Notes under the pieces: model-generated
Seen by the model: only the letters and a program-made list of their open reading frames with translations
Told to the model about the DNA's origin: nothing
Databases searched by the model: none
Shown: in pieces, positions 6,156 to 54,332 of the stretch
How positions within the stretch are numbered: the stretch's first letter is position 1
How the letters are laid out: each line of letters opens with the position of its first letter
DNA from: a bacterium
GTDB taxonomy: Bacteria; Chloroflexota; Dormibacteria; Aeolococcales; Bog-877
Assembly: GCA_021816695.1 (NCBI GenBank)
Contig: JAKAXE010000001.1
Location: 67,344 to 131,343, forward strand
Direction of reading: 5' to 3'
Length of the DNA: 64,000 nucleotides
Program-made: the position numbers and the translations under genes

Positions 6156-6187
6156 CGCTCGCCCATTTGGTCCACCATCATGGGAGC

Positions 6188-14650: not shown

Positions 14651-14655
14651 CCGCC

Positions 14656-27574: not shown

Positions 27575-27828
27575 CCACCTCAGCTCCCGACCTTCCCCGA
27601 CCCGACCGCCTTGCTCTCAGCAAGCCTGTACTTCGACCTGAAGCAGGTCAGCCGGCGGCCGCCCGGGCTCTGAGCTCGTCCCCCGGAGGCGGCCCGTTCG
27701 GCGTCTCGGCTCGTCGCTCAAGGGCTGCTGGACGCGGGCGGTGGTGCCGACTGAGCCAGGCGATGCGTGTTTTGCACAGCCGAGATGGTGTAAACTCCAG
27801 CGCCGGTGGGCAGCCCCCGCCAGTGGCC

Positions 27829-30800
27829 ATGGTCCGCGTGCGAAGGCCTGGCAGGGTGCGAGTCCGATGGTCGATGGTGGGCCAGGCAGGGGGTAGAAGA
27901 TTGGCTGACCGCTCTGGGCCGCTACTGGCCGCCCACCAGTTCTTTCGCCAAGGGCAACCGTCGGCCGAAGGTTGGAGCCAGCTGGTGGCGAAGGGGCGGG
28001 AGTGGGAGGCGTTCTATCGCGATCGGTGGCAGCACGACAAGGTGGTGCGTTCCACCCACGGTGTCAACTGCACTGGTTCTTGCTCTTGGAATGTCTACGT
28101 CAAGGATGGCCTGATCACCTGGGAAAACCAGGCAGTTGACTACCCCTCGCTGGGACCCACCATGCCGGAGTACGAGCCGAGGGGATGCCCCCGCGGTGCC
28201 TCCTTTTCCTGGTACACGTACTCGCCCTTGCGGGTCCGCTATCCGTATGTCCGAGGGAGCCTTCTGATGCTATTCCGGGCAGCGAAGGAGCGGCAGCACG
28301 ATCCGGTGGCCGCATGGGCGTCGGTCGTGGAGGATCCGGAGGCGGCCAGCCTCTACAAGTCCCACCGGGGCAAGGGGGGGTTCGTGCGCGCCTCTTGGGA
28401 CGAGGCCGTGGAGATGATCGCAGCGGCGCACGTCTACACGATCAAGACATATGGGCCCGATCGGGTGGCGGGCTTCTCGCCGATCCCAGCTATGTCGCAG
28501 GTCTCGTATGCGGCTGGGACCCGCTTCCTCTCCTTGATCGGGGGTGTGATCCTCAGCTTTTACGACTGGTACGCCGACCTCCCACCTGCTTCACCTCAGG
28601 TCTTCGGGGACCAGACCGATGTCCCGGAATCTGGCGACTGGTGGAACGCCGGGTATCTGATGATCTGGGGCACCAACCTTCCCATCACGCGGACCCCGGA
28701 CGCCCACTTCATGACTGAGGCCCGGTACCGCGGCCAGAAGGTGGTTGTGGTCTCCCCGGATTACTCAGACCACGTCAAGTTCGCTGACCACTGGCTGCCC
28801 GCTCAGCCCGGCACCGATGCGGCGCTTGCTATGGCCATGGGCCACGTGATCGTGAAGGAGTTCTACGTGGATCGCCAGGTCCCCTACTTCCAGGACTACG
28901 CCCGTCGCTTCACCGACCTGCCCCTGCTCGTGACCCTGGACCAGCAGGAGGAGGGGACGGTCCCGGGGCGGTTCTTGCGGGCCTCGGACTTGGAGGGAGG
29001 CGGAGGAGAAGAGCTCCCCGAGTGGAAGCTCGTGGTTCTCGACGAGGCCACCGGGAACCCAGCCGTGCCCCCCGGCTCAGTGGGGCACCGCTACCAGACG
29101 ACCGAAGGCCAGTGGAATCTGGAGTTGGGGGACCTGCGTCCGGCACTCACCGTCCTCGACCGGGCTGCCGAGCGTCTTGAGGTGAGGCTGCCTCGGTTCG
29201 ATCTCGGGGGCGGTGAGGGAGGCTCGGAGCTCATTCGGGGGGTCCCGGCGATCCGGGTCGGGGGCCACCTGGTGACCACGGTCTACGATCTCATGCTGGC
29301 TCAGTACGGTGTTGTCAGACCTGGCCTGCCGGGGAACTGGCCTAGAGGGTACGACGATCCGGAGCCATGCACCCCGGCCTGGCAGGAGGAGATCACCTCA
29401 GTCGGGGCGCAGCTGGCCACCCGCATCGCCCGGGAGTTTGCCCGCAACGCTGAGGTCACCGAAGGCCGCTCCATGATCGCCATGGGGGCCGGGACCAACC
29501 ACTGGTTTCACTCCGATCTCATTTACCGAGCGTTCCTCTCACTGCTGCTCCTCTGCGGTTGTGAGGGACGGAACGGTGGCGGGTGGGCCCACTATGTCGG
29601 GCAGGAGAAGGTGAGGCCCCTGACCGGCTGGCAGACGATGGCCTTCGCTCTGGATTGGGTGCGGCCACCCCGGCACCAGTCCGCCACTCCGTACCTCTAC
29701 CTGGCAACCGACCAGTGGCGCTACGAGGGGTACGGCGCCGAGGAGCTGGCCTCGTCCCTGGGCAAAGGTCTCTTTCGGGGCCGCCAATTCGCGGACTGCT
29801 ACGTCCAGGCGAGTCGACTGGGCTGGCTGCCAGCCTATCCCAGCTTCGATCGCAGTCCTCTGGATGTCGTCGACGACGCTCGGCGGATGGGTCGGGAGCC
29901 CGCGGACCATGTCATCCAGGAACTCACCGATGGGCGCCTGCATTTCGCCGCCGAGGACCCCGACGCGCCCCAGAACTTCCCCCGGGTGCTGACGGTCTGG
30001 CGGGCCAACCTGCTCGGGTCGTCGGGAAAGGGGCACGAATACTTCCTGAAACACCTGCTGGGCACCAGCGACCCCGCCGTGCGGGCCGAGGAGAGTCCGC
30101 CAGAGCTGCGACCCCAGGAAGTCCGCTGGCATGATGCACCGCCGCGAGGCAAGCTGGACCTGCTCACGACCATCGACTTCCGGATGACCTCGAACTGCCT
30201 CTTCTCGGACGTGGTGCTCCCGGCCGCCACCTGGTACGAGAAGTACGACATCTCGTCGACCGACATGCACCCCTTCGTGCACAGCTTCAACCAGGCGATC
30301 CCCCCTCCCTGGGAGGCCAAGACCGACTGGGACGCGTTCAACCGCATCGCTGCCGCCTTCTCGGAACTGGCAGAACGCCACCTCGGAGTCCGCGAGGACC
30401 TGGTCTGTGCACCGCTGCTTCACGACACCCCAGACGAGATCTCGCAGCCGCTCGGGCAGGTGCTGGACTGGGCCCGCGGGGACTGTTCGCCGGTCCCCGG
30501 GCGCACCATGCCCAAGCTGCTGGTCGTGGAGCGCGACTACCCCGCCGTGGCCGAGAAGATGAAGGCCATCGGGCCGCTGCTGGAGGAGCTGGGCAGCCAG
30601 ACCAAGGGGGCGCATTGGAAGCCGGCGCTCGAGATTGAGGAATTACGGGCCAGCAACGGCACGGTGCAGGGCGGGGTGGCCGACGGACGGCCCCGGCTTG
30701 AGCGAGCCGAGCATGTTGCCGACGCCATCCTGGCGCTCTCCGGGACCTGCAATGGCCGCCTCGCGGTCGAGGGCTTCCGCTCCCTGGAGGGACGCTGCGG

Positions 30801-31566
30801 GGTGCCGCTCGCCGATCTAGCCGCATCGCGCGAGGCGGACCGAATCACCTTCAAGGACACCCAGGTCCAGCCCCGCACGGTGATCACCTCGCCGGAGTGG
30901 TCGGGGAGCGAGGCTCACGATCGGCGCTACGCGCCTTTCACCATCAACGTCGAGAGGGCCAAGCCCTGGCATACCCTGAGCGGTCGGCAGCACTTCTACC
31001 TCGATCACGAGTGGATGCTGGAACTAGGGGAAGGTCTGGCGGTCTTCAAACCACCGCTCAACTACCGCCTCCACTTCGGCGACCAGCAGATCGGGCAGGC
31101 CGGGAGGCTGGAGGTGACGGTGCGCTACCTGACGCCGCACTCCAAGTGGTCGATTCACTCCGAGTACCAGGACAACCTCTTCATGCTGACCCTCTTCCGG
31201 GGCGGCCCGGTGATCTGGATAAGCGAGGACGACGCCGCGGCCATCGACGTGCGTGACAACGACTGGATCGAGGCCTACAACCGCAACGGGGTGATCACCT
31301 GCCGGGCGGCGGTGACCCACCGTCTGCCCCGAGGGGTGTGCCTCATGTACCACGCCAAGGACCGTCATGTGAACGTGCCCCTCAGCGAGCTGCACGGCAA
31401 CCGGGGTGGGGTCGACAACTCCCTGACCAGGGTCGTCTGGAAGCCAACTCACCTCATCGGCGGGTACGCCCAGCTCTCCTTCGGATTCAACTACTTCGGC
31501 CCCACCGGCTCGCAGCGCGATGAGATCACCGTGCTCAGCAAGCGTCAGTCGGAGGTGGTGTACTGA
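27829..31566 (+). CDS. narG: Respiratory nitrate reductase alpha subunit
   Basis: N-terminal FS0 region RWQHDKVVRSTHGVNCTGSCSW and molybdopterin oxidoreductase length. Start is either ATG 27829 or ATG 27874; the track starts at 27763. Confidence 0.95.
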   Translation: MVRVRRPGRVRVRWSMVGQAGGRRLADRSGPLLAAHQFFRQGQPSAEGWSQLVAKGREWEAFYRDRWQHDKVVRSTHGVNCTGSCSWNVYVKDGLITWENQAVDYPSLGPTMPEYEPRGCPRGASFSWYTYSPLRVRYPYVRGSLLMLFRAAKERQHDPVAAWASVVEDPEAASLYKSHRGKGGFVRASWDEAVEMIAAAHVYTIKTYGPDRVAGFSPIPAMSQVSYAAGTRFLSLIGGVILSFYDWYADLPPASPQVFGDQTDVPESGDWWNAGYLMIWGTNLPITRTPDAHFMTEARYRGQKVVVVSPDYSDHVKFADHWLPAQPGTDAALAMAMGHVIVKEFYVDRQVPYFQDYARRFTDLPLLVTLDQQEEGTVPGRFLRASDLEGGGGEELPEWKLVVLDEATGNPAVPPGSVGHRYQTTEGQWNLELGDLRPALTVLDRAAERLEVRLPRFDLGGGEGGSELIRGVPAIRVGGHLVTTVYDLMLAQYGVVRPGLPGNWPRGYDDPEPCTPAWQEEITSVGAQLATRIAREFARNAEVTEGRSMIAMGAGTNHWFHSDLIYRAFLSLLLLCGCEGRNGGGWAHYVGQEKVRPLTGWQTMAFALDWVRPPRHQSATPYLYLATDQWRYEGYGAEELASSLGKGLFRGRQFADCYVQASRLGWLPAYPSFDRSPLDVVDDARRMGREPADHVIQELTDGRLHFAAEDPDAPQNFPRVLTVWRANLLGSSGKGHEYFLKHLLGTSDPAVRAEESPPELRPQEVRWHDAPPRGKLDLLTTIDFRMTSNCLFSDVVLPAATWYEKYDISSTDMHPFVHSFNQAIPPPWEAKTDWDAFNRIAAAFSELAERHLGVREDLVCAPLLHDTPDEISQPLGQVLDWARGDCSPVPGRTMPKLLVVERDYPAVAEKMKAIGPLLEELGSQTKGAHWKPALEIEELRASNGTVQGGVADGRPRLERAEHVADAILALSGTCNGRLAVEGFRSLEGRCGVPLADLAASREADRITFKDTQVQPRTVITSPEWSGSEAHDRRYAPFTINVERAKPWHTLSGRQHFYLDHEWMLELGEGLAVFKPPLNYRLHFGDQQIGQAGRLEVTVRYLTPHSKWSIHSEYQDNLFMLTLFRGGPVIWISEDDAAAIDVRDNDWIEAYNRNGVITCRAAVTHRLPRGVCLMYHAKDRHVNVPLSELHGNRGGVDNSLTRVVWKPTHLIGGYAQLSFGFNYFGPTGSQRDEITVLSKRQSEVVY

Positions 31567-33149
31567 TGAAGGTCCGCGCCCAGGTCGGGATGGTGATGAA
31601 CCTGGACAAGTGCATCGGGTGTCACACTTGCAGTGTCACCTGCAAGCAGGTGTGGACCAACCGGCCCGGGACCGAGTACGTCTGGTTCAACAACGTGGAG
31701 ACCAAGCCTGGCCTCGGCTTTCCACGCCGTTGGGAGGACAACCAGACGTGGCAGGGAGGCTGGAAGCTCGACCGCCGGGGCCGGCTGCGGCTTCGGGCCG
31801 GCGGGCAGCTGCGCAAGCTGCTAACGATCTTCTGGAACCCCGACCTCCCCACCATCGACGACTACTACGAGCCCTGGACCTACGACTACCACACCCTGAT
31901 CGACGCTCCTCTCTCCGAGCGTGACCCGGTGGCTAGGCCGCAATCGCAACTCACGGGCCGGCGGATGGATGTCAAGTGGGGCCCCAACTGGGACGACATG
32001 CTGGCGGGTGCTCCCGAGACGGCCTCCCGAGACCCTGATCTGGCCGGTCTGCAGGAGCAGGTCAAGCTGACCTACGAGCGTACGTTCATGTTCTACCTGC
32101 CCCGGATCTGTGAGCACTGCCTCAACCCCTCGTGCGTCGCCTCCTGTCCCTCGGGGGCCATGTACAAGCGCGAGGAGGACGGCATAGTCCTGGTCGACCA
32201 GGAGAAGTGCCGGGGCTGGCGCTTCTGCGTGTCCGGCTGTCCCTACAAGAAGGTCTACTTCAACCACCACACCGGCAAGGCGGAGAAGTGCACCCTCTGC
32301 TACCCCCGGATCGAGCTCGGGCTGCCCACCGTGTGCTCCGAGACCTGCGTCGGCCGGATCCGCTACCTGGGCCTCGTTTTGTACGACGCCGACCGGGTCA
32401 GAGAGGCGGCCTCAGTGCCGGACGAGAAGCGCCTCCTGGACGCGCAGCTGAAGGTATTCCTCGACCCCGCGGACCCGGCGGTGCAGCGGCAGGCGCGGGC
32501 CGACGGCATCCCCGACGACTGGATCGAATACGCCCAGCGCTCCCCGGTGTACGCCTTGGCGCACCGCTGGCGGGTTGCCCTCCCACTGCACCCCGAGTAC
32601 CGCACCTTGCCCATGGTCTGGTACGTTCCCCCGCTTTCTCCGGTCGTGAACGCCATGGAGGCGGACGGCTACGAGGCTGACCCCGACCAGCTGTTCCCGG
32701 CCATCGACGCCATGCGCATCCCCCTGGACTACCTGGCCAACATCCTGGCCGCCGGCGACCGGGAGGTGGTCCGGCTGGCTTTGCGCCGCCTCGCGGGCAT
32801 GCGCAGCTACATGCGCAAGCTGGAGGTCCTGGGAGTTCGCGACCACCAGGCCGCAACGGCAGCTTCCCTGGAGCCTTCTGAGATCGAGGCGATGTACCGC
32901 TTGCTGGCGGTCGCCAAGTACGAGGACCGCTACGTCGTACCCCAGGCCCACAGTGAGCAGGCACAGCGGCTGGCCGAGTTGCCGGGGAGCTGCGGACTGG
33001 ACTTTGATGGCGGTCCAGGCAACTGTGGGGCGCTGCCACGACCCGCTCAGGGCCTCAACGAGACCTTCATGGTCCAAGACCGGAAGGTCGGAGGTCACCG
33101 GTTCGTGCCGCTGCCTGTGGTGAACCCGGGGCCTGGGCACGGCGAGTGA
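31566..33149 (+). CDS. narH: Respiratory nitrate reductase beta subunit (Fe-S)
   Basis: CIGCHTCSVTCK plus further Cys clusters (CEHCLNPSCVASCP, CRGWRFCVSGCP). TGATG overlap with narG. Confidence 0.95.
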   Translation: MKVRAQVGMVMNLDKCIGCHTCSVTCKQVWTNRPGTEYVWFNNVETKPGLGFPRRWEDNQTWQGGWKLDRRGRLRLRAGGQLRKLLTIFWNPDLPTIDDYYEPWTYDYHTLIDAPLSERDPVARPQSQLTGRRMDVKWGPNWDDMLAGAPETASRDPDLAGLQEQVKLTYERTFMFYLPRICEHCLNPSCVASCPSGAMYKREEDGIVLVDQEKCRGWRFCVSGCPYKKVYFNHHTGKAEKCTLCYPRIELGLPTVCSETCVGRIRYLGLVLYDADRVREAASVPDEKRLLDAQLKVFLDPADPAVQRQARADGIPDDWIEYAQRSPVYALAHRWRVALPLHPEYRTLPMVWYVPPLSPVVNAMEADGYEADPDQLFPAIDAMRIPLDYLANILAAGDREVVRLALRRLAGMRSYMRKLEVLGVRDHQAATAASLEPSEIEAMYRLLAVAKYEDRYVVPQAHSEQAQRLAELPGSCGLDFDGGPGNCGALPRPAQGLNETFMVQDRKVGGHRFVPLPVVNPGPGHGE

Positions 33150-33781
33150 TGCCGGGTTTCGGGCACAGGGCCCCCTACAAGCTGCTCTCGGTCCTCCTCC
33201 AGTATCCCGGAGATGAGGTAGAGCAGGCTCATCCCGAGCTGGTGGCGGCATTCGGGCGATGTGCGCCCGGTGTGCAGCGGGAGATCTCCAACTTCTTTCG
33301 CTACTGGGAGGTTACCCCCTGGCCGCGGGTGCGCGAGGAGTACGTCGAGACCTTCGACCTCCAGCGACGGTGCAGCCTCTTTCTCACCTTCTTCACCCAT
33401 GGCGACACCCGCAGGCGGGGTCAGGAGCTGCTCCGGCTCAAGTGGCTGTACCGGGCCGCCGGGCTCGAGCTGGAGGGCTCAGAGCTGCCGGACTACCTTC
33501 CGGTAATGCTGGAGTTCGCCGCCCTGGCGCCTGACGCCGCTGGCCGGGAGCTGTTGCAGGAGCACCGCCCCGGGCTGGAGCTGCTGTGGCTGCGATTGAA
33601 CGAGCTGGAGAGCCCCTACGCGTGCCTGGTCCAGCTAATCCGCCGGAGTCTACGACCACTTGCCGCGTCCCAGTTGGAGGTGGTGCGCAGGCTGGTCCAG
33701 GAAGGCCCGCCCGCCGAGGCGGTCGGCCTGCAGCCGTTCGCCCCACCGGAGGTGATGCCGTGGTCGGAGGTGCACCGGTGA
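33146..33781 (+). CDS. narJ: Nitrate reductase molybdenum-cofactor assembly chaperone
   Basis: NarJ/TorD-like ~210-aa protein between narH and narI. GTGA overlap with the narH stop. Confidence 0.85.
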   Translation: MMPGFGHRAPYKLLSVLLQYPGDEVEQAHPELVAAFGRCAPGVQREISNFFRYWEVTPWPRVREEYVETFDLQRRCSLFLTFFTHGDTRRRGQELLRLKWLYRAAGLELEGSELPDYLPVMLEFAALAPDAAGRELLQEHRPGLELLWLRLNELESPYACLVQLIRRSLRPLAASQLEVVRRLVQEGPPAEAVGLQPFAPPEVMPWSEVHR

Positions 33782-34473
33782 CCGTGGAGGAGGCGCTGCT
33801 GTTCGTGGCCCTGCCCTATTCCTCCATCACCCTCTTTGTGGCCGGGCACATCTGGCGCTATCGGCACGACAAGTTCGGGTGGACCAGCCGCTCCACCCAG
33901 CTACTGGAGCGGCGCTGGCTGGCCTGGGGCAGCAACCTCTTCCACTACGGGGCCCTGGCCGCCATCGGGGGCCACGTAGTCGGGCTCCTGATCCCCGAGC
34001 AACTGACCCATGCTGTGGGCATAAGCGAAGGCGCCTACCACCTGTTCGCGGCCGCTGCCGGCACCGTCGCCGGCCTCGCCTGCATCGCCGGGTTCGTCAT
34101 CCTGGTGGGGCGGCGCGCCTACTTCCCGCGGATCCGGCGCACGACCACCTGGACGGATGTCGTGGTCTACCTGGTGCTGGCGGGCATCATCGTCCTCGGG
34201 CTGATCGAGACCATCGGCTTCAACACCCTGGGCACCGGTTACAACTACCGCCCCACCGTCGGGGTGTGGTTCCGCAGCCTGCTGTGGCTGCACCCCGAGC
34301 CCCAGCTCATCGCGGGGGCTCCGCTGGTGTATCAGCTCCATGCCACCCTGCCGTGGATCCTCTACGCGGTCTGGCCCTTTAGCCGCCTGGTTCACGCCTG
34401 GAGCCTGCCCTGGCAGTACCTGGGCCGACCCTACATCCTTTATCGCCGTCGCTACGGCCTGGCCCGGCGCTGA
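33778..34473 (+). CDS. narI: Respiratory nitrate reductase gamma subunit (cytochrome b)
   Basis: GTG at 33778 overlaps the narJ stop (GTGA). Five TM helices with the conserved His-containing helices (ITLFVAGHIWRY, HYGALAAIGGHVVG). Confidence 0.85.
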   Translation: MTVEEALLFVALPYSSITLFVAGHIWRYRHDKFGWTSRSTQLLERRWLAWGSNLFHYGALAAIGGHVVGLLIPEQLTHAVGISEGAYHLFAAAAGTVAGLACIAGFVILVGRRAYFPRIRRTTTWTDVVVYLVLAGIIVLGLIETIGFNTLGTGYNYRPTVGVWFRSLLWLHPEPQLIAGAPLVYQLHATLPWILYAVWPFSRLVHAWSLPWQYLGRPYILYRRRYGLARR

Positions 34474-44304: not shown

Positions 44305-45351
44305 GTGCCAACTCTCCCGGGTGCCGGGACGGCCGGCCTGCGCATCGGGACGGAGGAAGCTTCCTCCTGGCGCTGGCGGACCACTGGCCCGGGGTCGGCC
44401 ACGACCCTCATCGAGCTGCCTGAGAAGGCCCCGTTCCGGCTCGACCTCACCGTTTGGACCTTGAGGCGCCGCGGGCACAACCAGGTCGATCAGTACGACG
44501 GGACCTGGTACCGGCGGCTCCTGGCTGTCGACGGAGCCGCGGTGGGCGTGGCGGTGCGCCAGCTCGGCCCCAGGCTCGAGATAGTCGCGCGAGGTGAGCC
44601 CCAGGCGGTTTCTCCGGAAGCCCTCCACCTGGTGGGCGTCACCCTGGTGGACATACTGGGGCTCGGCAAGGAGCTTGCCGGCTTCTACCGGGTGCGGAAG
44701 GAGCCATGGCTGGAAGAGCTGGCCCGACGCTTCCGGGGCATGCGCCCACCGCGCTTTCCCAGTGTCTTCGAGGCCGCGGTGAATGCCGTGGTCTGCCAGC
44801 AGCTCAGCCTTGTCGTCGGCATTCACCTGCTCAACCGGCTCGCCGCCCGGTTTGGCACCCGGCCGCCACGGGCCATAGACGGCTGGGGTCCCGGGGCACC
44901 GGAGATGGGACGCATCGCCGGTGCCGACTGGCAGTCGCTGCGGGAGCTCGGCTTGAGCGGCTCCAAGTCAAGGTCTCTGGTGGCCATCGCTCAGGCTCTG
45001 AGCGGTGCGGACTTCGCCTCCGAGGCCCTGGCGGCGATGCCGGACCAACAGCTGGAGGAGAGGCTCCGCTCCCTGCCGGGGATCGGGCGCTGGAGCGCCC
45101 AGTATGTGATGCTCCGCGGGCTGGGTCGCTGGTCGATCCTCCCCGGCGACGACGTGGGTGCCCAGAACGCTCTGCGCCGGCGCTTCCAGCTTCCGGGACG
45201 GCCCGGGTACGAGGAGGTCCAGGAGCTCGCCCAAGCCTGGCGCCCGTACGCGGGTCTGGTCTACTTCCACCTTCTCCTCGCGGGACTCGAGATGGGCGAG
45301 TCAGGGCGGCTGAGCCGGGAGGAGACGGAAGCCGGGGTGGCGGGGCGGTGA
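44305..45351 (+). CDS. HhH-GPD DNA glycosylase, AlkA-like (DNA-3-methyladenine glycosylase II)
   Basis: N-terminal AlkA-like domain. HhH-GPD region LRSLPGIGRWSAQYVMLRGLG with the catalytic Asp context (PGDDVG). Confidence 0.7.
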   Translation: MPTLPGAGTAGLRIGTEEASSWRWRTTGPGSATTLIELPEKAPFRLDLTVWTLRRRGHNQVDQYDGTWYRRLLAVDGAAVGVAVRQLGPRLEIVARGEPQAVSPEALHLVGVTLVDILGLGKELAGFYRVRKEPWLEELARRFRGMRPPRFPSVFEAAVNAVVCQQLSLVVGIHLLNRLAARFGTRPPRAIDGWGPGAPEMGRIAGADWQSLRELGLSGSKSRSLVAIAQALSGADFASEALAAMPDQQLEERLRSLPGIGRWSAQYVMLRGLGRWSILPGDDVGAQNALRRRFQLPGRPGYEEVQELAQAWRPYAGLVYFHLLLAGLEMGESGRLSREETEAGVAGR

Positions 45352-48206
45352 CCGACGTCTTCAACTCGGAGTCAGAGCTCACGGTGGGTGGGCGGCGTTA
45401 CCGGATCAGCCGGCTGGCGTCGCTGCGAGACCTTGCGGATCTCGACGTCCTGCCCTACAGCATCAAGATCCTGCTGGAGAACCTGCTCCGTCACCAGCGG
45501 GACGGGGAGGTCTCTTCCGAGGCGGTGGCTGCCCTGGCCAGGTGGGCCCGGGGGGGCGGTCAATCCCTGGAGCTCCCCTTCCACCCCGAGCGGGTCCTGC
45601 TTCAGGACTTCACCGGGGTGCCTGCGGTAGTGGACCTGGTGGCACTCCGGGACGCCCTCTCCGAGCTGGGCGGTGACAGCGTCCAGGTGAACCCCAAGGT
45701 CCCGGTGGAGCTGATCGTGGATCACTCGGTGATCGTGGATGAATGGCGCGGATCGGCTGCCTTCGACGTCAACCGTACGCTCGAGTTCTCCCGCAACCGG
45801 GAACGCTACCGTCTGCTGCGCTGGGCTCAGCAGGGCTTCCGCCAGTTCGCAGTGGTGCCTCCGGACACTGGGATCTGTCACCAGGTCAACTTGGAGCACC
45901 TCGCCCGGGTGGTGTTCGCCACCGAGGAGGGGGAAGCGTATCCCGACACCTTGGTGGGCACCGACTCTCACACCCCGATGGTCAACGGAATCGGTGTCCT
46001 GGGGTGGGGAGTGGGGGGCATCGAAGCGGAGGCGGCGATGCTGGGACACCCGGTTCCTGTCCCCATGCCCGTGGTGGTCGGGGTATACCTGGAGGGGGAG
46101 CTGCCCCCCACGGCCACCGCCACGGACCTCGTCCTGACGCTGACCCAGTTGCTCCGTCAGCACGGGGTGGTGGGCAAGTTCGTGGAGTTCACCGGCCCCG
46201 GCCTCAGCCGGCTGCGGGTCGAGCACCGCGCCACCCTGGGCAACATGGCGCCTGAATACGGGGCCACCTGTGCCATCAGCCCGATCGACCAGGCCACCCT
46301 GGACTACCTGCGCCTCACCGGCCGGCCAGGTTCCCACGTGGAGCTAGTGGAAGCCTATGCCCGGGAGCAGGGGCTGTTCTTTGACCCCGGCAACCCCCTC
46401 CCGCAATTCTCCGAGCTGGTGCACCTGGACCTCTCCAAAGTGGAGACGTCTTTGGCCGGCCCGGCCCGCCCTCAGGATCGAGTGGCGCTGTCACTCGTGC
46501 CCCAGTCCTTCCGCAGCCACCTCGGGGCACTGGCGCCCGAGACCATGGACTCCGGCACTTTGGCTCCGACCTGGACCCCACCTCCGCTCGTGGATGGGTC
46601 CTGTGAGCAGGCCTCGGCAGACTCCTTCCCCGCCAGCGACCCCCCGGCGTCGAACTGCGCGGGAGCCGCGCACGGCGAGCCCGGTGCTGATCGACCGGAG
46701 GCCGCCAGCCCTCCCGCTCTGCCCAAGGAGCTGTCGGGCAGGCGCAGGCGCGTCGTCGAGGTGGAGCTAGATGGACAGGTGGTGCCGATCGACGACGGCC
46801 ACGTGGTCATCGCCGCCATCACCAGCTGCACCAACACCTCCAACCCCGAGGTGATGGTGGCCGCCGGGCTGATGGCCCGGCGGGCGGTTGACCTCGGGCT
46901 GCGCCGCAAGCCCTGGGTGAAGACCTCGCTGGCACCGGGGTCGAGGGTGGTGATGCGCTACCTTCGCCGGGCGGGCCTGGACCGGCCGCTCGCCGAACTT
47001 GGCTTCAACCTGGTCGGGTACGGATGCACCACCTGCATCGGCAACTCGGGGCCGCTGATCCCGGAGGTGTCCGCGGCGGCGCGGGAGAAGGGGCTCGTAG
47101 TGGCTGCGGTCCTCTCCGGTAACCGCAACTTCGAAGGCCGGATCCACCCCGAGGTGCGCCTCAACTACCTGGCCTCGCCCCCGCTGGTGGTGGCGTATGC
47201 GCTGGCAGGCTCCCTCGACTTCGACTTCGGAGCTCAGCCCTTGGGGACCTCCTCGGATGGCCGTCCTGTCTGGCTCCGGGACCTCTGGCCCGGCGCGCAG
47301 GAGATCGGCGATGTCGTGTCGCAGGTGCTGACCAGCGAGCAGTTCCGGGATGAGTACCGGACCGTCTTCCAGGGGGATGAACTCTGGGAGCGGCTGTTAC
47401 CTCAGGACGCCGCCCGGTTTGTCTGGGAGCCCGAATCGACCTACGTGCGGCGGCCCCCCTTCCTCACCGGGGTGGCGAGGGCGGCCGTTCCGCCTGGGGA
47501 CATCCAGGGGGCTCGTTGCCTAGCGCTGCTTGGGGACAGCGTCACCACCGACCACATCTCTCCGGCTGGCGCGATCAGTCCCGACGGGCCGGCCGGCTCG
47601 TACCTCAGGGGGCACGGGGTGGCCGTACCTGATTTCAACTCCTTCGGCTCGCGGCGGGGCAACCACGAGGTGATGATCAGGGGCACCTTCGCCAACCCGC
47701 GGCTTAGGAACCAGCTTGTGCCCGGCGTAGAGGGGGGGTACACCCGGCATCATCCCAGTGGCCGCACCATGACTATCTACGACGCCTCCTGCCTGTACCA
47801 GGAGGCGGGGACTCCGCTGCTGGTCGTGGCCGGCCGCGACTACGGCTCGGGCTCCTCGCGCGACTGGGCCGCCAAGGGCACGCGGTTGCTGGGCGTGCGC
47901 GCGGTAGTGGCCCAGAGCTTCGAGAGGATTCACCGCTCGAACCTGGTGGGCATGGGCGTGCTCCCCATCGAGTTCTGGAACGGCGCCAGCGCGGCTCAGC
48001 TCGAGCTGACCGGAGAGGAGACCTTCGATCTGCTGGGGATCGCAGACTTGCTCGAGGGGGACCTGGCTGCACTGAGGCTGATAGCCGACGGGCGGGAGCT
48101 CCCGGTGCGGGCGCGGCTCGACTCCCCGACCGAGATCGACCAATTCCGGCACGGGGGCATCCTGCCCCTGACCTTGCGCCAGCTCCTGGGGACGGCCCCA
48201 CTTTGA
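45347..48206 (+). CDS. acnA: Aconitate hydratase A
   Basis: GTG at 45347 overlaps the alkA-like stop (GTGA). Full-length aconitase features include IKILLENLLR, the Fe-S ligand cysteines (ITSCTNTSNP, GYGCTTCIGNSG) and the swivel domain. The 1166-aa track ORF from 44706 is an out-of-frame extension into the glycosylase gene and is rejected. Confidence 0.95.
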
Positions 48207-48310
48207 GCCGGGCCCAGGGACCTCCCACGGGTGGGCCCGGTTCGAAGGATCCGAAGCCCCGGGGTGGGACCGGGACGGACGCGCGTGAGAGAACCGGGTG
48301 GGCCTCCGGC

Positions 48311-48733
48311 ATGTTCAGTTGTCCCCGCTGCCGCAGGCAGTTTCACCGCAGCTTCCTTGAGCGCTTCTGGTCCGAATGGCAGGTGGTCTGCTGGGTCCCG
48401 GACGGGCGGAGCTACCACCTGGACTGCCCGCTGCTCTCGGCCCCACCTCCTGCAGATGCCCTCGATGCGCCCGAAGAGAGCCCCTCACCGCCGCGTTCCA
48501 GTGGCGACCCCCCGGGGGCTACTCAGGTTCTCGGCGCCTGCCTGGGCGACTGCGCCCTCTGCGGCGACCACGCCCGGCTTGCGGTGGTCACCAGCGGTGG
48601 GGTCCTCAGCCGCTGCCTGCGCTGCCGTGACGAGAAGGGGCTCGATGCCCCTCCGCCATTCTGTGCCCGGGCCGGAGCCATTTCGCATCGGGCCGCCCGG
48701 CGCCCGCCCACCACCGGGGCGGAGCGCGGATGA
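48311..48733 (+). CDS. Hypothetical Cys-rich (zinc-ribbon-like) protein
   Basis: MFSCPRCRRQF...CLGDCALCGD...CLRCRDEKG, i.e. several CxxC pairs. Coding status uncertain in this GC-rich context. Confidence 0.3.
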   Translation: MFSCPRCRRQFHRSFLERFWSEWQVVCWVPDGRSYHLDCPLLSAPPPADALDAPEESPSPPRSSGDPPGATQVLGACLGDCALCGDHARLAVVTSGGVLSRCLRCRDEKGLDAPPPFCARAGAISHRAARRPPTTGAERG

Positions 48734-48978
48734 GGCAGCACGACCCGGGGGCGAGGGTCACGGCCGGGCGGCTCCCCACCACGGGCCGAGCGGATCAGGC
48801 CGCTCCGGCGCTCGTAGGCGGGGCACGCCGGTCCCCTTCTCGACCGTCACCTCCGGGGCGCGCACCCAATCGCCAGCCCGGCCACGGCCTAGGCCAAGAG
48901 CACCGGAGGAAGGCTGATAGGGCAGGTGAGTATCGGCTGGGGTGGATCGGGCGGGAGGAGCCACACCGGGGTGCCCGG

Positions 48979-49719
48979 GTGCCACCCGCCCAGTACGAGC
49001 TTCCCTTCCGGGTCGCCGGCAAGCTAAGGCTCAACCTTCGCACCGTGGAGCTCCGGCTGGCGCCACTCGCCCGGCGGCTGGGCTTCGTCCCCGGTCAGTA
49101 CCTCCTGCTGTCGGACCCAGACGGGCAGGTCGAGCCACGCTCGTATTCGATCGCCAATCGCCCCCGCCCCGATGGCACCCTCACCCTGCTCGTGACTCAG
49201 GTGCCGCAGGGCCAGTGCAGCAGCTGGGTCTTAGGGACGCTGGCGGTTGGCGCCGAGGTGCTCGTGGACGGGCCCTTCGGGGACTTCTTCCCCGGCCCAG
49301 AGGACTTCGAGGCCACGGTGTACCTGGCCGGGGGGGTTGGGATGGCCCCGATTCTGGCCCTGCTCGCGGAGGCGCTCGCCTCCTCGGGGGGTGCCGACCT
49401 GCACCTCCTCGGCTCTTTCCGAAGTGAGGACGACTTCCTGGGGCGGGAGCAGGTGCGGAGGTGGCAGAGGCGGCATCCACGCTTCCACTTCACGCGGACT
49501 CTGACCAGGAGCTCGGAGCAGTTGCCGCTGGGCAGGCTGCCCCCGCTCCTGCCGGAGCTGCTCGGGTCGCTGGAAAAGGTCTCCAACTTCGTCGCCGGGC
49601 CGGAGGGATTCGTCGACAGCTGCGCGGCCACCTTGCTGTCTCTTGGAGCCGACCCCTCCCGCCTCCACACTGAGGCCTTCTTCCCCAATCCCAGCCCTTG
49701 GGGGGCAGCTCCACTGTGA
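48979..49719 (+). CDS. FNR-family FAD/NAD(P)-binding oxidoreductase (ferredoxin-NADP reductase-like)
   Basis: GTG at 48979. FAD-binding RSYSIANRP and the NAD-binding VYLAGGVGMAPILAL motif. The track ORF from 48730 is an Arg/Pro-rich upstream extension. Confidence 0.7.
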   Translation: MPPAQYELPFRVAGKLRLNLRTVELRLAPLARRLGFVPGQYLLLSDPDGQVEPRSYSIANRPRPDGTLTLLVTQVPQGQCSSWVLGTLAVGAEVLVDGPFGDFFPGPEDFEATVYLAGGVGMAPILALLAEALASSGGADLHLLGSFRSEDDFLGREQVRRWQRRHPRFHFTRTLTRSSEQLPLGRLPPLLPELLGSLEKVSNFVAGPEGFVDSCAATLLSLGADPSRLHTEAFFPNPSPWGAAPL

Positions 49720-50267
49720 GCCGGGTCTACACACGGCTGGGAGATGACGGCACCACGGGGCTCCTGTTCGGAGGCCGGGTCTCCAAGGCGGACGGACTGA
49801 TCGCCACTCTGGGCGCCATCGACGAGGCGGTGGCCACCCTCGGGGTCGCCCGGGCGGCCGGACCGCCCGGGGAGCTGGGCGACCTCATCTTGGACTTACA
49901 GCGGGAACTCTTTGTGGTGGCTGCCGACCTGGCCTGCAACCCCCGCCAGCGCCGGCGCCTTCGCACGCGGCTGACCCGGGTGAGCTCGGAGATGGTCACC
50001 GGGCTGGAGGCCCGCATCGACGGGCTCGTCGCCCAGCATCCGCTGCGGCCGGTCTTCGTGGTGAGCGGTGCCAACCTGGAGTCGGCCCTCCTGGACCTCG
50101 CCCGAGTCGCTGTACGCCGTGCGGAGCATCACGCGGTCGGCCTTGCGGCAGCGGGGCGGACGGTGTCACCACAGGTCGGCACCTACCTCAACCGGCTCTC
50201 CGATCTTCTCTACGTCATGGCGAGGACAGCCGCCGGGGAAGAGGCCGAGCCGGTCAGCCACCAATGA
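49716..50267 (+). CDS. PduO-type ATP:cob(I)alamin adenosyltransferase
   Basis: VYTRLGDDGTTGL N-terminal signature. The GTG at 49716 forms a GTGA overlap with the FNR-like stop (49717-49719). The track ORF starts at the TTG at 49698. Confidence 0.85.
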   Translation: MSRVYTRLGDDGTTGLLFGGRVSKADGLIATLGAIDEAVATLGVARAAGPPGELGDLILDLQRELFVVAADLACNPRQRRRLRTRLTRVSSEMVTGLEARIDGLVAQHPLRPVFVVSGANLESALLDLARVAVRRAEHHAVGLAAAGRTVSPQVGTYLNRLSDLLYVMARTAAGEEAEPVSHQ

Positions 50268-50436
50268 GCCATCAGGATGCCTTCTCGGCGTGTTGTGGAG
50301 TGGTTGGCCTTGGGCCAGGGCCCCTTGAGCTCCACCCCGCCTGGCCGGTGAGAGCGAGGCGGCCCTGGCGGGACGGGCTCGTACCGGGCGGCGTCACTGC
50401 CCGCGCCCGGGGAACGCGCCGGTTCCGGGCCTCAGG

Positions 50437-51603
50437 ATGACGAAGACTTCGGGCCGAGCAGGGCCCGGCAAGCCCCGCTTCTCGCGCTCCGCCCCGGTGG
50501 TCATAGTCGTGGGGGGAGGTGACGCCGGGTTGGCGGCCGCCCTTCACCTGTCCGCGGCCGGCGTGCGGGTCCGGCTCGTGACCGAGGGGGGGAAGGCCGG
50601 GTACCTGCCCGGCGTGCCCGACGTCATCCTGGGTCGGGCTCGGGCGAGCCGATTCCGCGTCCCGCTGAACCTGCCGCAGATCGAGGTCGTCGCGGGCCGG
50701 GCGCGGGAGGTGCGGCCCAAAGGGGTGCGCATTGGCGGCGATTGGATGCCGGCAGATGCGGTGGTGGCGGCACCAGGGCTGACGCTGGCCCGCCAGCGGG
50801 CCGACCCGGCGGCGGGTCCCCTGCCCTGCTGGGACCTGCCGTCGGCCGCCCGGACGACGGCGCGGTTGCTCGACCTCGAGCGGGGGACGGTAGCCATCGT
50901 CATTGCCTCCCTCCCCTACCGCTGCCCGCCCGCACCATTCGGCCTGGCCATGCGGCTGTCCCGACACCTTCGCGAGCGAGGGAGAGGAGTCAGGGTAGTG
51001 CTGACGACCCCCGAGGCGCATCCGTTGGAGGCCTTGGGGCCGGAGCCCGGCACCCACCTGCTGCAGGCCTGTGCCAGCGTCGGGGTGGAGGTCCGTCTGG
51101 GCTGGGCCCCGGCCCGGGAGGCGCTGGCGAGGGGGCGGCTGGTGGGGGAGGATGGCAAGCCGCTGGCCGCTGAGCTGGTGCTCCTGGTACCGGCCCACCG
51201 CCCCAGCCCTCTGCTGGCACCGCTGGCGGGGGAAGGGCCGCTGGTCCCGGTGAATCATCAGTTCGAGACCCACTGGGCGGGACTGTTCGTGGCTGGCGAC
51301 GCGGCCGCCAGCCCATATCCTCGCGCGTCGGGAGCGGCCATCGCGTCGGGCAAGTCCGCCGCTCAGGGGGTGCTGGCGCGGCTCGGCCTGTCGGAGAAGG
51401 AAGAGGGCAGCCTGCCTCAGCTCGACTGCTACGTCGGCCACGGCGGCGATATCTACAGCCGGCTGAGCGTGCGCTATCCCGAGGGCCCGCCTCCCGTGGG
51501 CCACCCCCAGGTGCTCATCGACGGACCGTCCGCCGACCTCGGCACCGAGTTCGGGGAGGGATTCCTGCGCTGGCTTCGTGCCAGGCAGCCCGGCGCCCGG
51601 TAG
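50437..51603 (+). CDS. FAD-dependent pyridine-nucleotide-disulfide oxidoreductase, sulfide:quinone oxidoreductase-like
   Basis: Rossmann VVIVVGGGDAGLAAALHL and a second dinucleotide fold (GLFVAGDAA). SQR-like Cys context (YRCPPAPFG). The antisense track ORF 50272-51504 is rejected as an artefact. Confidence 0.65.
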   Translation: MTKTSGRAGPGKPRFSRSAPVVIVVGGGDAGLAAALHLSAAGVRVRLVTEGGKAGYLPGVPDVILGRARASRFRVPLNLPQIEVVAGRAREVRPKGVRIGGDWMPADAVVAAPGLTLARQRADPAAGPLPCWDLPSAARTTARLLDLERGTVAIVIASLPYRCPPAPFGLAMRLSRHLRERGRGVRVVLTTPEAHPLEALGPEPGTHLLQACASVGVEVRLGWAPAREALARGRLVGEDGKPLAAELVLLVPAHRPSPLLAPLAGEGPLVPVNHQFETHWAGLFVAGDAAASPYPRASGAAIASGKSAAQGVLARLGLSEKEEGSLPQLDCYVGHGGDIYSRLSVRYPEGPPPVGHPQVLIDGPSADLGTEFGEGFLRWLRARQPGAR

Positions 51604-51742: not shown

Positions 51743-53062
51743 ATGATCCGCCCGCAGCGAAGCCCCGAGATCGGCCTGCCTCTGCGCTACCTGGCGACAG
51801 GGATGGGGGCCTGGCTGCTGGCGGCCGTGGCGGTGCCCGTGCTGGCCTCCCACCTCACCTCGGGATTCGACGACCCGGAGGTCTTCGCCCTGACCCATCT
51901 CGTGGTGCTGGGCTGGGTGACCATGACACTCATGGGGGCCCTCTTCCAGCTCTTCCCGGTGGCCCTCCAGGCCACCCTTGCCGCACCGCGCCTGGTCCGA
52001 TGGAACTACTTCGTCTACACGGCTGGGGTGGCCGGCTTTGTGCCCAGCTTCTACTTCAACTGGACCCCGGGCGTGGCCGGCTTCGGGAGCCTTGCGGTTC
52101 TCGGGATCCTGGTCTTCGCCGCGGTGCTGGCCGTCAGCTACCGGACCGTCCGCACCCGGCACCCCATGGGGCTGTTCGTCCTCTGCGGGCTCGCCTGGCT
52201 CCTGGTCACTATCGGCTTCGGGCTGACCTGGGCCCTGGACTGGCAGTTCCAGTGGTTCGCGATCACCCCCAACATGCTCGCCGCCCACGTCCACGCCGGG
52301 CTGGCGGGTTGGTTGGGATGCACTCTGATCGGAGTCTCGTACAAGCTCATGGAGCTGTTCGCGCTGGCGCACCGCCGCAGCTGGCGGGCGGCCCACATCC
52401 TGCTGGTCCTCTGGAACGGCTCTCTGGCGGCGCTGGTGCTGGGTCTTCTGCTCTGGCCCGGCAGCATCGAGGTCAGGGTGGCGTCCACCGCGCTCGCTGG
52501 AGCGGTGCTCCTGTTCGCGGCCGACCTCTTCCAGATGTGGCGAGGGCGACGCCGTCGCCGGGTCTCCGTGGAGCAGGGCCACGTGGCCGTCAGCCTCACC
52601 TCGCTGCTGATGGCGGCAGGCCTGGGGGTCCTGCTCAGCGCCGGGGTCGATTTCCCCCCGCGGGCCTTCGTCGCCTACGGCTACGCCGCCATCATGGGAG
52701 GATTCGGCTTCGCCATCGCCGGCCGGTACCAGAAGATCCTCCCCTTCCTCACCTGGGTCCATCGCTACTCTCGGGGCCCCGGGCCAACTCCGCCTCCGTT
52801 GCTCCAGGACCTCGTGGATGAGCGCCTGGGATGGATCAGCCTGCTTGTCCTCACCGCGGGATACGCCACCACTTTGGGAGGCCTCCTTGCTGGTTCGCCG
52901 GTGGCGGTCCTGGGAGGTGGTGCGGTGTACGCCGCCGGGGCGGTGCTGGGGCTGGGGGCGGTGCGCCTCACCCTCCTTCCGGCCCGTGCCGCCCGGCGGT
53001 CGTCCCCTGCTGCTGCCCTGCCAGGATCACGGACCGGGACCTCGGCGCCCCCCTCCCCCTGA
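51743..53062 (+). CDS. Polytopic (about 12 TM) membrane protein, possibly NnrS-like heme-copper protein
   Basis: 439 aa with about 12 hydrophobic helices and conserved-looking His residues in helices (THLVVLGW, HVHAGLAGW, HRRSWRAAH). The assignment rests on topology and genomic context and is uncertain. Confidence 0.45.
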   Translation: MIRPQRSPEIGLPLRYLATGMGAWLLAAVAVPVLASHLTSGFDDPEVFALTHLVVLGWVTMTLMGALFQLFPVALQATLAAPRLVRWNYFVYTAGVAGFVPSFYFNWTPGVAGFGSLAVLGILVFAAVLAVSYRTVRTRHPMGLFVLCGLAWLLVTIGFGLTWALDWQFQWFAITPNMLAAHVHAGLAGWLGCTLIGVSYKLMELFALAHRRSWRAAHILLVLWNGSLAALVLGLLLWPGSIEVRVASTALAGAVLLFAADLFQMWRGRRRRRVSVEQGHVAVSLTSLLMAAGLGVLLSAGVDFPPRAFVAYGYAAIMGGFGFAIAGRYQKILPFLTWVHRYSRGPGPTPPPLLQDLVDERLGWISLLVLTAGYATTLGGLLAGSPVAVLGGGAVYAAGAVLGLGAVRLTLLPARAARRSSPAAALPGSRTGTSAPPSP

Positions 53063-53067
53063 GCAGG

Positions 53068-54332
53068 TGGTGAAGGCTACTCCAACTCGGAAACCGCCGC
53101 CCACCGTGGTGGTGATCGGGGCGGGGTTCGCCGGTCTGGCCGCGATGGCGGATCTCGCCAGGCTGGGCTGGGACGCCTGGCTGGTGGAACGGCAGCCCTA
53201 CACGACCTTCCAGCCGCTTCTCTACCAGGTGGCGACCGGGGGCCTGAATCTGGAGGATGTCGCCTTCCCCATCCGCAGCCTGCTGCGCCGGATGGGTCGC
53301 GGAAGATTCGTGCAGGGCGTCGCGGCCTCCGTCGACTGGGACCTGAGACAGGTGACCCTGGAAGGTGGGCAGACCCTCTCTTACGACCACCTGCTGCTGG
53401 CCACGGGAGCCGCACCCAAGTTCTTCGGTGTGCCCAGCGCGGCCGAGTTGGGGCTTCCCCTCCACACCCTGGTGGACGCGGCCCGGCTGCGAACTCGGCT
53501 CGTTGCGGTGCTGGAGCGGGCCGCCGCCGACCACACCCAGCACCGGGTGCACCTGGTGGTGGTGGGAGGAGGGCCGACCGGGGTGGAGACGGCCGGGGCG
53601 CTGGCGGAGCTCCGGGACCTTTTGGCGGGGAGGGACTATCCGGAACTGGGCCGGGATGACATCAGCATCGAGCTCCTGGAGGCGGCTCCGCGGCTGCTCC
53701 CCAGCTTTCACCCGGAGCTGTCCCGCTACGCTCGCCGGGAGCTGGAACGGCGCTCTGTGGTCGTTTTAACCGGCAGCGCAGTCCGGCAGGTGCAGGAAGG
53801 GGCGGTCCTTCTCGACTCCGGGCTGAGGCCTACGGACCTTTTGGTCTGGTCGGCCGGAGTGGAGGTGGCCGACTCCCCCTTGCTGCGCGGCCTGGCCCGG
53901 ACCGCGTCGGGGCGGCTGGACGTCACCCCTTCCCTGCAACTGCCAGGTCACCCAGAGGCCTTTGCCCTGGGGGACTGTGCCGGCGCGCGAGCCGGCACGG
54001 CTGAACTGCCGCAGCTGGCTCAGCCAGCGATCCAGGCCGGTCGGCATGCGGTGCGGCAGCTGCGCCGGATTCGCTCCGGTCAGGAGCCCCTGCCCTTCCG
54101 GTATCGCGACCGGGGGACCATGGCCACCATCGGCAGGCGGGCGGCGGTGGCCCAGCTTCGAGGCGGGCTCAGGCTCACCGGAACGGCCGCCTGGCTCGCC
54201 TGGCTGGGGCTACACCTAGTGGAGCTCCTCGGGGTCCGCAACCGAGCCTCGGTCCTGCTCAATTGGACCTGGCACTACCTGGCCTGGCGGCAGGCCGCGG
54301 GACTGATCCCACCAGCACCTGGCCCCGGATAG
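53068..54332 (+). CDS. ndh: Type II NADH:quinone oxidoreductase (NDH-2)
   Basis: VVVIGAGFAGL and VVVGGGPTGVE dinucleotide-binding motifs. GTG start near 53068. The track ORF from 52818 overlaps the preceding gene in another frame. Confidence 0.8.

Follow-up and report, generated by a model that had tools for sequence, protein, structure and literature searches.

A flavoprotein gene overlapping a PduO-type adenosyltransferase gene in Dormibacteria, a candidate for cob(II)alamin reduction

The sole redox need of an ATR (ATP:cob(I)alamin adenosyltransferase) is one electron, which takes the bound corrinoid from Co(II) to Co(I), and the in vivo source of this very-low-potential electron is unsettled. 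Here a gene pair is described from a stretch of 64,000 nucleotides (the window; positions 67,344 to 131,343 of contig JAKAXE010000001.1, GenBank assembly GCA_021816695.1) of a bacterium assigned to the Dormibacteria, in which the gene of a PduO-type ATR overlaps the gene of a small flavoprotein with the fold of ferredoxin-NADP reductase (FNR). Members of this flavoprotein family are encoded next to an ATR almost without exception. The flavoprotein is considered as a candidate NAD(P)H-dependent source of the electron that converts ATR-bound corrinoid from Co(II) to Co(I), a role proposed from gene order and judged to have about an even chance of being correct.

It has been reported that PduO-type ATRs hold cob(II)alamin in a four-coordinate form, by which the Co(II)/Co(I) couple is shifted up by ~250 mV to ~-360 mV (PMC4083273, PMC2982820, PMC4923194, PMC2995210), and that flavoproteins or free reduced flavins can reduce the ATR-bound four-coordinate cob(II)alamin (PMC4083273, PMC2982820, PMC4923194). 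As Mera and Escalante-Semerena (2010) are cited in PMC4083273 and PMC2982820, reduced flavin drives both the cob(III)-to-cob(II) step and the reduction of four-coordinate cob(II)alamin on these enzymes. The prevailing view for PduO-type enzymes is that any reduced flavin will do. The initial annotation of the locus had stated that a PduO-type ATR needs an electron donor and that in humans this role is filled by methionine synthase reductase (MSR). The argument from MSR has been overtaken: the literature now holds that no dedicated donor is required, free reduced flavin being sufficient (PMC2995210, PMC4083273), and MSR, a cytosolic protein, supports the PduO-type ATR MMAB in vitro only (PMC2995210, PMC4083273) and is no longer held to serve it in vivo (PMC2995210).

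Only two operon-encoded reductases have been described: PduS, which belongs to microcompartments, and CobR, which acts with CobA-type enzymes in the aerobic pathway. The clearest precedent of a dedicated reductase-PduO pair is PduS, which, like the protein described here, is a flavoprotein encoded in an operon with a PduO-type ATR, and which binds PduO physically (PMC4083273, PMC2982820, PMC4923194). It differs in its unrelated architecture (~49 kDa, with FMN and two [4Fe-4S] clusters) and in its tie to the propanediol-utilisation microcompartment; no bacterial microcompartment (BMC) genes occur here. CobR, from the aerobic B12 pathway of Brucella melitensis, is an FAD enzyme that uses NADH to bring Co(II) corrinoids to the Co(I) state for an adenosyltransferase (PMC4083273), but it is an 18.7-kDa homodimer likened to the flavin reductases PheA2 and TftC and not a protein of the FNR fold, and its partner is a CobA-type ATR. 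Many B12 users have no CobR (PMC4083273, PMC2982820, PMC4923194).

Fre of Escherichia coli and Salmonella, a reducing system for corrinoid adenosyltransferases in vitro, is like the window flavoprotein a single NAD(P)H-dependent FNR module of ~235-245 aa with no Fe-S or flavodoxin domain. However, Fre is a housekeeping protein, its gene is unlinked to an ATR and flavin is its diffusible substrate, whereas the gene in the window overlaps that of an ATR and encodes motifs that resemble those of the bound-FAD class. MSR (MTRR) and the bacterial Fpr-flavodoxin system also contain an FNR-like FAD/NADPH module, which ultimately reduces enzyme-bound cob(II)alamin, but their electron is passed through an FMN or flavodoxin module that is absent from the flavoprotein, and no specific relationship in sequence was seen beyond the common fold. 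The closest relatives of the flavoprotein are the FAD/NAD modules of three-domain oxygenase reductases and of flavohemoglobin, namely those of GcoB (5ogx), T4moF (4wqm), CarAd (7c3a), MMOR (1tvc), BenC (1krh) and the flavohemoglobin Hmp (1gvh). These modules share with it the RxYS and GGxGxxP motifs and a C-terminal aromatic residue, but it differs from the whole proteins in having no [2Fe-2S] or globin domain and no oxygenase partner. In flavohemoglobin, the FAD reduces a tetrapyrrole directly. No description of an FNR-like/PduO gene pair was found in the literature.

The overlapping genes and their products

The flavoprotein gene lies at positions 48979..49719 of the window (+ strand, stop included) and encodes 246 aa with an FAD and an NAD(P)H domain, and the ATR gene lies at 49716..50267 (+ strand, stop included) and encodes 183 aa. 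The TGA stop of the flavoprotein open reading frame (ORF; 49717-49719) and the GTG start of the ATR (49716-49718) overlap within the four bases GTGA (49716..49719, + strand), read as a signature of translational coupling. The ATR ORF reads (V/M)SRVYTRLGDDGTT... from this GTG to the TGA at 50265-50267. The window has a G+C content of 70%, and the longest flavoprotein ORF on the + strand starts further upstream, at ATG 48730. The 83 residues between ATG 48730 and GTG 48979 showed no conservation when 19 homologues were aligned and resemble translated non-coding DNA, and the FNR domain sets in just past GTG 48979, which is therefore the likely start; the 329-aa form from ATG 48730 was rejected. 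A public protein of identical sequence (P0001) is likewise annotated with 246 aa, and identical proteins are present in GCA_027402095.1, the closest named relatives being metagenome-assembled genomes (MAGs) of Dormiibacterota. The ATR start at GTG 49716 aligned with the ATG, GTG or TTG starts of orthologues, and an alternative start at TTG 49698 was rejected for being out of line with them. The initial annotation had reported the same overlap, the same flavoprotein start and the same ATR identity, and every detail of this observation was confirmed. Start/stop overlaps of four bases are frequent between operon genes, and one alone is nothing unusual.

Two Pfam domains, and no others, were detected in the flavoprotein: PF00970 (FAD_binding_6; E 5e-11, 43.2 bits, cut-off 21.1) and PF00175 (NAD_binding_1; E 4.6e-8, 34.1 bits, cut-off 22). 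They follow the two-domain order of the FNR superfamily, an FAD barrel and then a Rossmann-like NAD(P) domain, and there was no Pfam match to the [2Fe-2S] domain PF00111. The AlphaFold2 model (pLDDT 85.5) matched many FNR-fold structures in Foldseek with a probability of 1.00, and the top matches were the FNR modules of GcoB, CarAd, T4moF and flavohemoglobin (TM ~0.8, identity 20-26%). When solved structures were searched with phmmer, modules of oxygenase reductases and flavohemoglobin were found at E 8e-18 to 2e-13, with GcoB 5ogx at 8e-18.

Both sequence motifs by which membership of the FNR superfamily was tested are present. The RxYS motif, whose role in flavin binding is well established in the family, is found as R54-S55-Y56-S57 (49138..49149, + strand), all four residues being invariant in 19 family members. 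The nucleotide-binding motif GGxGxxP is found as G118-G-V-G-M-A-P124 (49330..49350, + strand), with G119 and G121 invariant and G118, A123 and P124 nearly so among the 19 homologues. A C-terminal aromatic motif, H230-T-E-A-F-F235 (49666..49683, + strand; T231, E232 and F234 invariant), aligned with the C-terminal 'hrekF' of GcoB 5ogx, and by analogy with reductases of the BenC class the aromatic residue may stack on the flavin. Conserved stretches specific to the family are RTLTR, PLGRLP and AGPxGFVDxC.

None of the NCBIfam equivalogs BenC, PaaE, MmoC and AntC was reached by the flavoprotein, the best score being 88.4 bits (BenC) against a cut-off of 430, and the oxygenase-reductase models aligned with it in the FNR part only, for example at positions 116-333 of 333 in BenC. 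An established place in an oxygenase pathway had been named in the initial annotation as the finding that would speak against a dedicated reductase. What was found is a protein with no [2Fe-2S] domain, a score of 88 against 430 bits, no oxygenase large subunit in the neighbourhoods examined and no oxygenase gene as a conserved neighbour. Membership of the Fre/LuxG equivalog NF005963 was not supported either (49.5 bits, cut-off 230), with the Fre structure 1qfj matched at E 3.4e-5, and Pfam and NCBIfam gave no match to the PduS or CobR families. By these sequence tests the flavoprotein is a member of the FNR superfamily outside the BenC-type, Fre, PduS and CobR families. In public databases the members of its family are labelled only 'FAD-binding oxidoreductase' or mislabelled 'CDP-4-dehydro-6-deoxyglucose reductase', and there is no curated model or informative name for the family.

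In the ATR, PF01923 (Cob_adeno_trans) was matched over profile positions 1-171 of 171 (E 3.9e-41, 141.4 bits, cut-off 24) and NCBIfam TIGR00636 (PduO_Nterm) at 123 bits against a cut-off of 108.45; the best solved relative is the Mycobacterium tuberculosis PduO-type ATR (2g2d/6wgs, E 1e-25). The N-terminal motif T6-R-L-G-D-D-G-T-T14 (49731..49757, + strand) corresponds to the ATP-binding motif TRLGDDGTT of PduO-type ATRs. Y5, T6, G9, D10, D11, G12 and T14 are invariant in 12 orthologues, and the pattern is the same as in the M. tuberculosis enzyme. F114, R130, R134, R135 and E137 (F-x15-R-x3-R-R-x-E; 50055..50126, + strand) are invariant columns in the orthologues and have the spacing of F170, R186, R190, R191 and E193 of human MMAB, where the equivalence of the Phe is by spacing and not by structural superposition. 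The ATP motif, the Phe that displaces the lower ligand and the Arg/Glu cluster that binds ATP and corrinoid in a PduO-type ATR were all found, with the caveat that the residue after E137 is His138, where human MMAB has Arg194. In human MMAB, Arg186, Arg190, Glu193 and Arg194 coordinate ATP and adenosylcobalamin (AdoCbl) (PMC9262797); Arg194, which helps in this coordination, is replaced in the disease variant Arg194Ser. The Phe that enforces four-coordinate Co(II) is Phe112 in Lactobacillus reuteri PduO (Mera 2009, as cited in PMC4923194). By domains, motifs and model, both proteins of the pair look intact.

Linkage of the pair across genomes

One genome per GTDB species was scanned with the family alignment, and the returned loci were searched with custom hidden Markov models (HMMs) of the ATR and the flavoprotein. 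The flavoprotein family is small: it makes up ~21 of the 90%-identity clusters in a set of 5.8 billion proteins, and in another set, of 1.84 billion, ~15-20 full-length representatives at 50% identity scored 225 bits or more. Membership was set by HMM score, members having at least 288 bits and all other FNR relatives at most 278; the next-best scores were those of an Azohydromonas protein (278), an Actinomycetota protein (225) and ordinary FNR relatives (at most 180). The Azohydromonas protein (L040) has an N-terminal 2Fe-2S (Fer2) domain and no ATR alongside. The members group as a single clade when joined into a neighbour-joining tree, and their hosts are Candidatus Dormiibacterota, Gaiellales, Solirubrobacterales, Micrococcales (Intrasporangium, Phycicoccus, Janibacter and Dermatophilaceae), as well as two 'Actinomycetes' MAGs and a MAG that bears the label 'Gemmatimonadota'. 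The last (L055, JBLMWU010000328.1) groups with an Actinomycetes MAG, and a locus labelled 'Candidatus Nanopelagicaceae' (L015, DATKSV010000048.1) is nearly identical to a Dormiibacterota MAG. In both cases the placement of flavoprotein and ATR is at odds with the label, which suggests mis-binning or recent transfer.

An ATR gene lies directly downstream on the same strand in 27 of the 31 full-length family members, the window included, and the coupled members diverge down to ~42-45% identity. No ATR was found within 6 kb of ~45 more distant FNR relatives. The pair is also present in loci from other collections (L004, L007, L009, L010, L095, L102, L105, L175 and L176). At the junction, an overlap of the ATGA, GTGA or TTGA type occurs in 17 of 26 orthologous genomes, or 19 of 28 when the window and L008/L020 are added, and the remaining orthologous junctions have a 1-base overlap or a gap of at most ~25 nt. 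A single overlap would be unremarkable, but the conservation of this junction amid changing neighbourhoods exceeds chance. Co-occurrence of the FNR-like gene with PduO-type ATRs, put forward in the initial annotation as a check, thus holds strongly from flavoprotein to ATR, in members of two phyla whose genomic contexts have little else in common.

The neighbours of the pair were compared by all-against-all clustering of the ORFs in 31 loci and by phmmer searches with nine window proteins, and no third universal partner was found. Among 30 coupled loci, aconitase was present in 7, an HhH-GPD protein in 8, a Cys-rich protein in 5, a Rieske protein in 7 and a Fer4 protein in 4. Other loci have EF-P/aroB (Intrasporangium) or DNA polymerase III delta' with a hydrolase (Phycicoccus), and further variable neighbours are a transposase, an ABC transporter, a cupin, ferredoxin-reductase-type flavoproteins and VIT1. 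Since nearly all neighbours differ while the pair persists, the junction has outlived its surroundings; the residual synteny means that common descent contributes too.

In a tree of the ATRs, all 30 coupled proteins fall into one clade, sister to a clade of uncoupled ATRs. Within the coupled clade the branching is similar to that of the flavoproteins, which suggests joint inheritance of the two genes. The window ATR ends in the tail E-P-V-S-H-Q (50247..50264, + strand), and an ending ...EEPxSH(x) was found in 30 of 30 coupled ATRs, whereas in the sister uncoupled clade R stands for H in 12 of 12, mostly as ...EPxSR(x). The SH tail is shared by the ATRs of Georgenia soli, a cultured actinobacterium, and G. 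subflava, yet at the G. soli locus there is no flavoprotein. The tail was therefore rejected as a signature of coupling and is regarded as a mark of the clade. At the G. soli locus (L174, PDJI01000004.1, 857-4747) the ATR is divergent from an SCO2322-like protein; an energy-coupling factor (ECF) T-component that matches CbiQ weakly is also encoded, as is a double ABC ATPase, and this ECF-type module may be a cobalt or corrinoid-related transporter.

Proposed role and rival explanations

The domains, the overlap and the linkage together suggest the following sequence of events, which supposes that the adjacency reflects function and that the acceptor is a corrinoid. The two genes would form a translationally coupled operon unit, and the coupling would give matched expression. 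Hydride would pass from NAD(P)H to the bound flavin, probably FAD, of the single-module FNR-fold protein. Since the flavoprotein has neither a [2Fe-2S] nor an FMN relay, the flavin would have to reduce its acceptor directly, as the FAD of flavohemoglobin does the heme. It may dock on the ATR with the face and exposed flavin edge that hold the [2Fe-2S] domain in its closest relatives. The ATR would hold ATP and four-coordinate cob(II)alamin, with the Co(II)/Co(I) potential raised into the range of a reduced flavin. A single electron passed from the flavoprotein to this corrinoid would give cob(I)alamin, which would attack ATP to form AdoCbl. The easier cob(III)-to-cob(II) step may be performed by the flavoprotein as well.

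The initial annotation had called the flavoprotein a strong candidate for a dedicated reductase. The candidacy stands on the genomic association and on the missing oxygenase context; "strong" is too much for a link that is one-way and an argument made from gene order. A broader proposal, which we put forward tentatively and hold to be somewhat less probable than its opposite, is that the protein would dock on the ATR and that its family would be the first NAD(P)H:cob(II)alamin reductase dedicated to PduO-type ATRs outside microcompartments. It would form with the ATR a minimal two-protein system that makes coenzyme B12 from NAD(P)H, ATP and cob(II)alamin with no free flavin, flavodoxin or Fe-S carrier. 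Such a system would have had a single origin and been passed on among Dormiibacterota and Actinomycetota as a translationally coupled cassette.

A number of observations weigh against a role in cobalamin reduction. We infer this function from gene order. When metagenome contigs were scanned with the ATR alignment and the 80 closest relatives (36-60% identity) were taken, 58 had no FNR-like gene and 19 had too little upstream sequence, so that the flavoprotein was found upstream in 3 of 61 judgeable cases. The neighbours of the uncoupled metagenomic ATRs were read by targeted Pfam scans, ORF clustering being muddied by long spurious ORFs of high G+C content; the nearest uncoupled ATRs are divergent and lie beside dapA and RNase J. 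The G. soli ATR has no flavoprotein although it belongs inside the coupled clade. In a Streptosporangiaceae lineage, the invariant Trp83 of the flavoprotein is replaced by an in-frame TGA (GGQLSC*VHD), both in a Streptosporangiaceae MAG (L175, 4246-5004) and in an independent Logan contig (L176, 1347-2105). These genes are intact apart from the TGA and keep the overlap with the ATR start, and they represent either a recent pseudogene or stop-codon read-through. The flavoprotein has no adjacent ATR in four genomes (L024, L029, L041 and L042), all of Solirubrobacterales, where two of the stand-alone genes adjoin CtaG or DUF488/MarR/ClC genes; the four are scattered among coupled relatives in the tree, which indicates secondary separation. 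Where human MMAB has Arg194, the window ATR has His138 (50127-50129), a residue found there and in its three closest relatives (89-93% identity) only, all other orthologues having Arg. The coupled ATRs are monophyletic, so the association may trace to one founding event that was never broken, and an HhH-GPD glycosylase persists near the pair in 8 of 30 loci as further synteny. No cobalamin riboswitch or other Rfam family was found at the gathering threshold in the whole window, and no B12-dependent enzyme, cob gene or corrinoid transporter was found in the window, for which 20 further large ORFs were checked with Pfam (hemE, narGHI, type IV secretion ATPases and fumarase were found). Among the 120 best ATR homologues there is no fusion with an FNR protein, and all loci with the pair come from MAGs or metagenome contigs, with no cultured host.

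A frame in a long-read MAG (L050, 5944-7289) that joins the C-terminal half of the flavoprotein to the ATR was rejected as a fusion and is more likely a sequencing error, because two further indels were seen against the close relative L036.

In the reverse direction, from ATR to flavoprotein, the co-occurrence expected from the initial annotation breaks down, most close relatives of the ATR, the G. soli enzyme among them, having no flavoprotein and one lineage having an interrupted one. The 3 of 61, the G. soli case and the premature stop together show the flavoprotein to be an accessory partner and not a universal one. It depends on the ATR and not vice versa, as an addition of single origin that lineages can lose; most ATRs, close relatives among them, do without it.

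One rival explanation is a free-flavin generator of the Fre kind, which would release FMNH2 or FADH2 into solution for the chemical reduction of cob(II)alamin (and cob(III)alamin) bound to the ATR, without specific docking and with the coupling serving co-expression only. The flavoprotein is, like E. coli Fre (233 aa), a single FNR module (246 aa) with no second redox centre. NF005963, the NAD(P)H-flavin reductase model, aligned with it over its full length (positions 21-230 of 233), the Fre structure was detected, and free dihydroflavins are enough for PduO-type ATRs according to the literature. The likeness is weak, however, at 49.5 bits against 230 and an E of 3e-5 against 8e-18 for GcoB among solved structures. 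The invariant RSYS motif and the C-terminal aromatic residue appear closer to reductases of the BenC/GcoB type, with tightly bound FAD, than to Fre, whose motif is RPFS, and continued overlap with one client gene across two phyla would be unexpected of a generic flavin reductase. A free-flavin generator is considered improbable. Still further from favour, and very improbable in our judgement, is a reductase of an oxygenase or ferredoxin chain, for example one that supplies electrons to the small Rieske and 4Fe-4S ferredoxins whose genes lie on the other strand ~6 kb downstream. Oxygenase reductases (BenC, MmoC, PaaE, T4moF and CarAd) do give the best sequence and structure matches, and genes for a Rieske ferredoxin (~109 aa) and a Fer4 protein lie near the pair here and, as counted above, in 7 and 4 of 30 loci. 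But the defining [2Fe-2S] domain is absent and the equivalog cut-offs were missed widely, no oxygenase large subunit was seen in the neighbourhoods examined, and the genes of the Rieske and Fer4 proteins are missing from most loci and otherwise lie on the opposite strand at varying distances; the Azohydromonas sister protein, which has a Fer2 domain, is without an ATR.

Frozen synteny is the more serious competitor, and we regard it as rather unlikely. The flavoprotein would then have an unrelated job, such as the reduction of ferric iron, a quinone, a nitro compound or another small molecule, and the pair would have arisen once or moved en bloc, overlapping genes being hard to separate. A single event would agree with the monophyly of the coupled ATRs, and other genes are also partly syntenic across the phyla (HhH-GPD 8/30, aconitase 7/30). 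Loss or inactivation of the flavoprotein in lineages that kept the ATR, its occurrence alone in four genomes and the window's lack of any B12-related context point the same way. What hitch-hiking explains less well is that all other neighbours have been shuffled while the junction survives in 27 of 31 members down to ~42-45% identity, that the only redox requirement of the ATR is what an NAD(P)H flavoprotein can supply, and that the family was not found elsewhere in appreciable numbers.

Genomic surroundings and significance of the pair

Upstream of the flavoprotein gene there is a spacer of 245 nt (48734..48978, + strand) with no recognisable regulatory element. Rfam matches at E <= 5 between 48150 and 49050 were chance matches only, the predicted RNA fold of the spacer showed no excess structure against shuffles (z = 0.01), and no sigma-70-like promoter or intrinsic terminator was found in 48100-50600. 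Before the spacer, between the aconitase and flavoprotein genes, lies the gene of a Cys-rich protein of ~140 aa (48311..48733, + strand; CPRC...CxxxCxxC...CxxC), which could be a zinc-ribbon or Fe-S protein and had no Pfam or NCBIfam match. L001, L004 and L007 conserve its frame at 48311-48733 but not that of the public gene call (48231-48917); the protein was found in Dormiibacterota loci only and is not part of the conserved pair. An AlkA-like HhH-GPD DNA glycosylase is encoded at 44305-45351 of the window (+ strand) and also in L025, L036, L055 and L175. Its gene lies upstream of the pair in both phyla, directly so in several Actinomycetota and farther away in Dormiibacterota, and in L175 the glycosylase gene shares 4 bases with the start of the flavoprotein gene. 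This recurrence is probably residual synteny.

Downstream of the ATR, on the + strand, follow the genes of a weakly SQR-like Pyr_redox_2 flavoprotein of 388 aa (50437-51603), a 439-aa membrane protein of no family (51743-53062) and a type-2 NADH dehydrogenase (NDH-2; 53100-54332). Of these, the membrane protein and NDH-2 are met again in Dormiibacterota loci, and in L019 and L021 the neighbour of the pair is instead a flavoprotein of the ferredoxin-reductase type (Pyr_redox_2 and Reductase_C). Elsewhere in the window are narG, narH and narI, encoding a respiratory nitrate reductase, followed by a SLAC1-type anion channel (27763-34473, + strand), hemE (5100-6194, - strand), and TraG/VirD4-like type IV secretion coupling ATPases with an 858-aa protein of no family (9958-16493, - strand), which suggest an integrated conjugative element.

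The idea of an ATR-specific flavoprotein would be no surprise to a B12 specialist, and the value of the locus lies in a clean two-protein system. The overlapped pair offers a concrete two-gene case in which it can be asked whether PduO-type ATRs use a dedicated protein reductant. A possible reason for such a need in these lineages is that free reduced flavin is scarce in aerobic soil bacteria. If the proposed role is refuted, the pair would be an instructive case of long-lived synteny without function. If it is true, the flavoprotein family would gain a functional annotation, and the pair would provide a compact module for the enzymatic production of AdoCbl.

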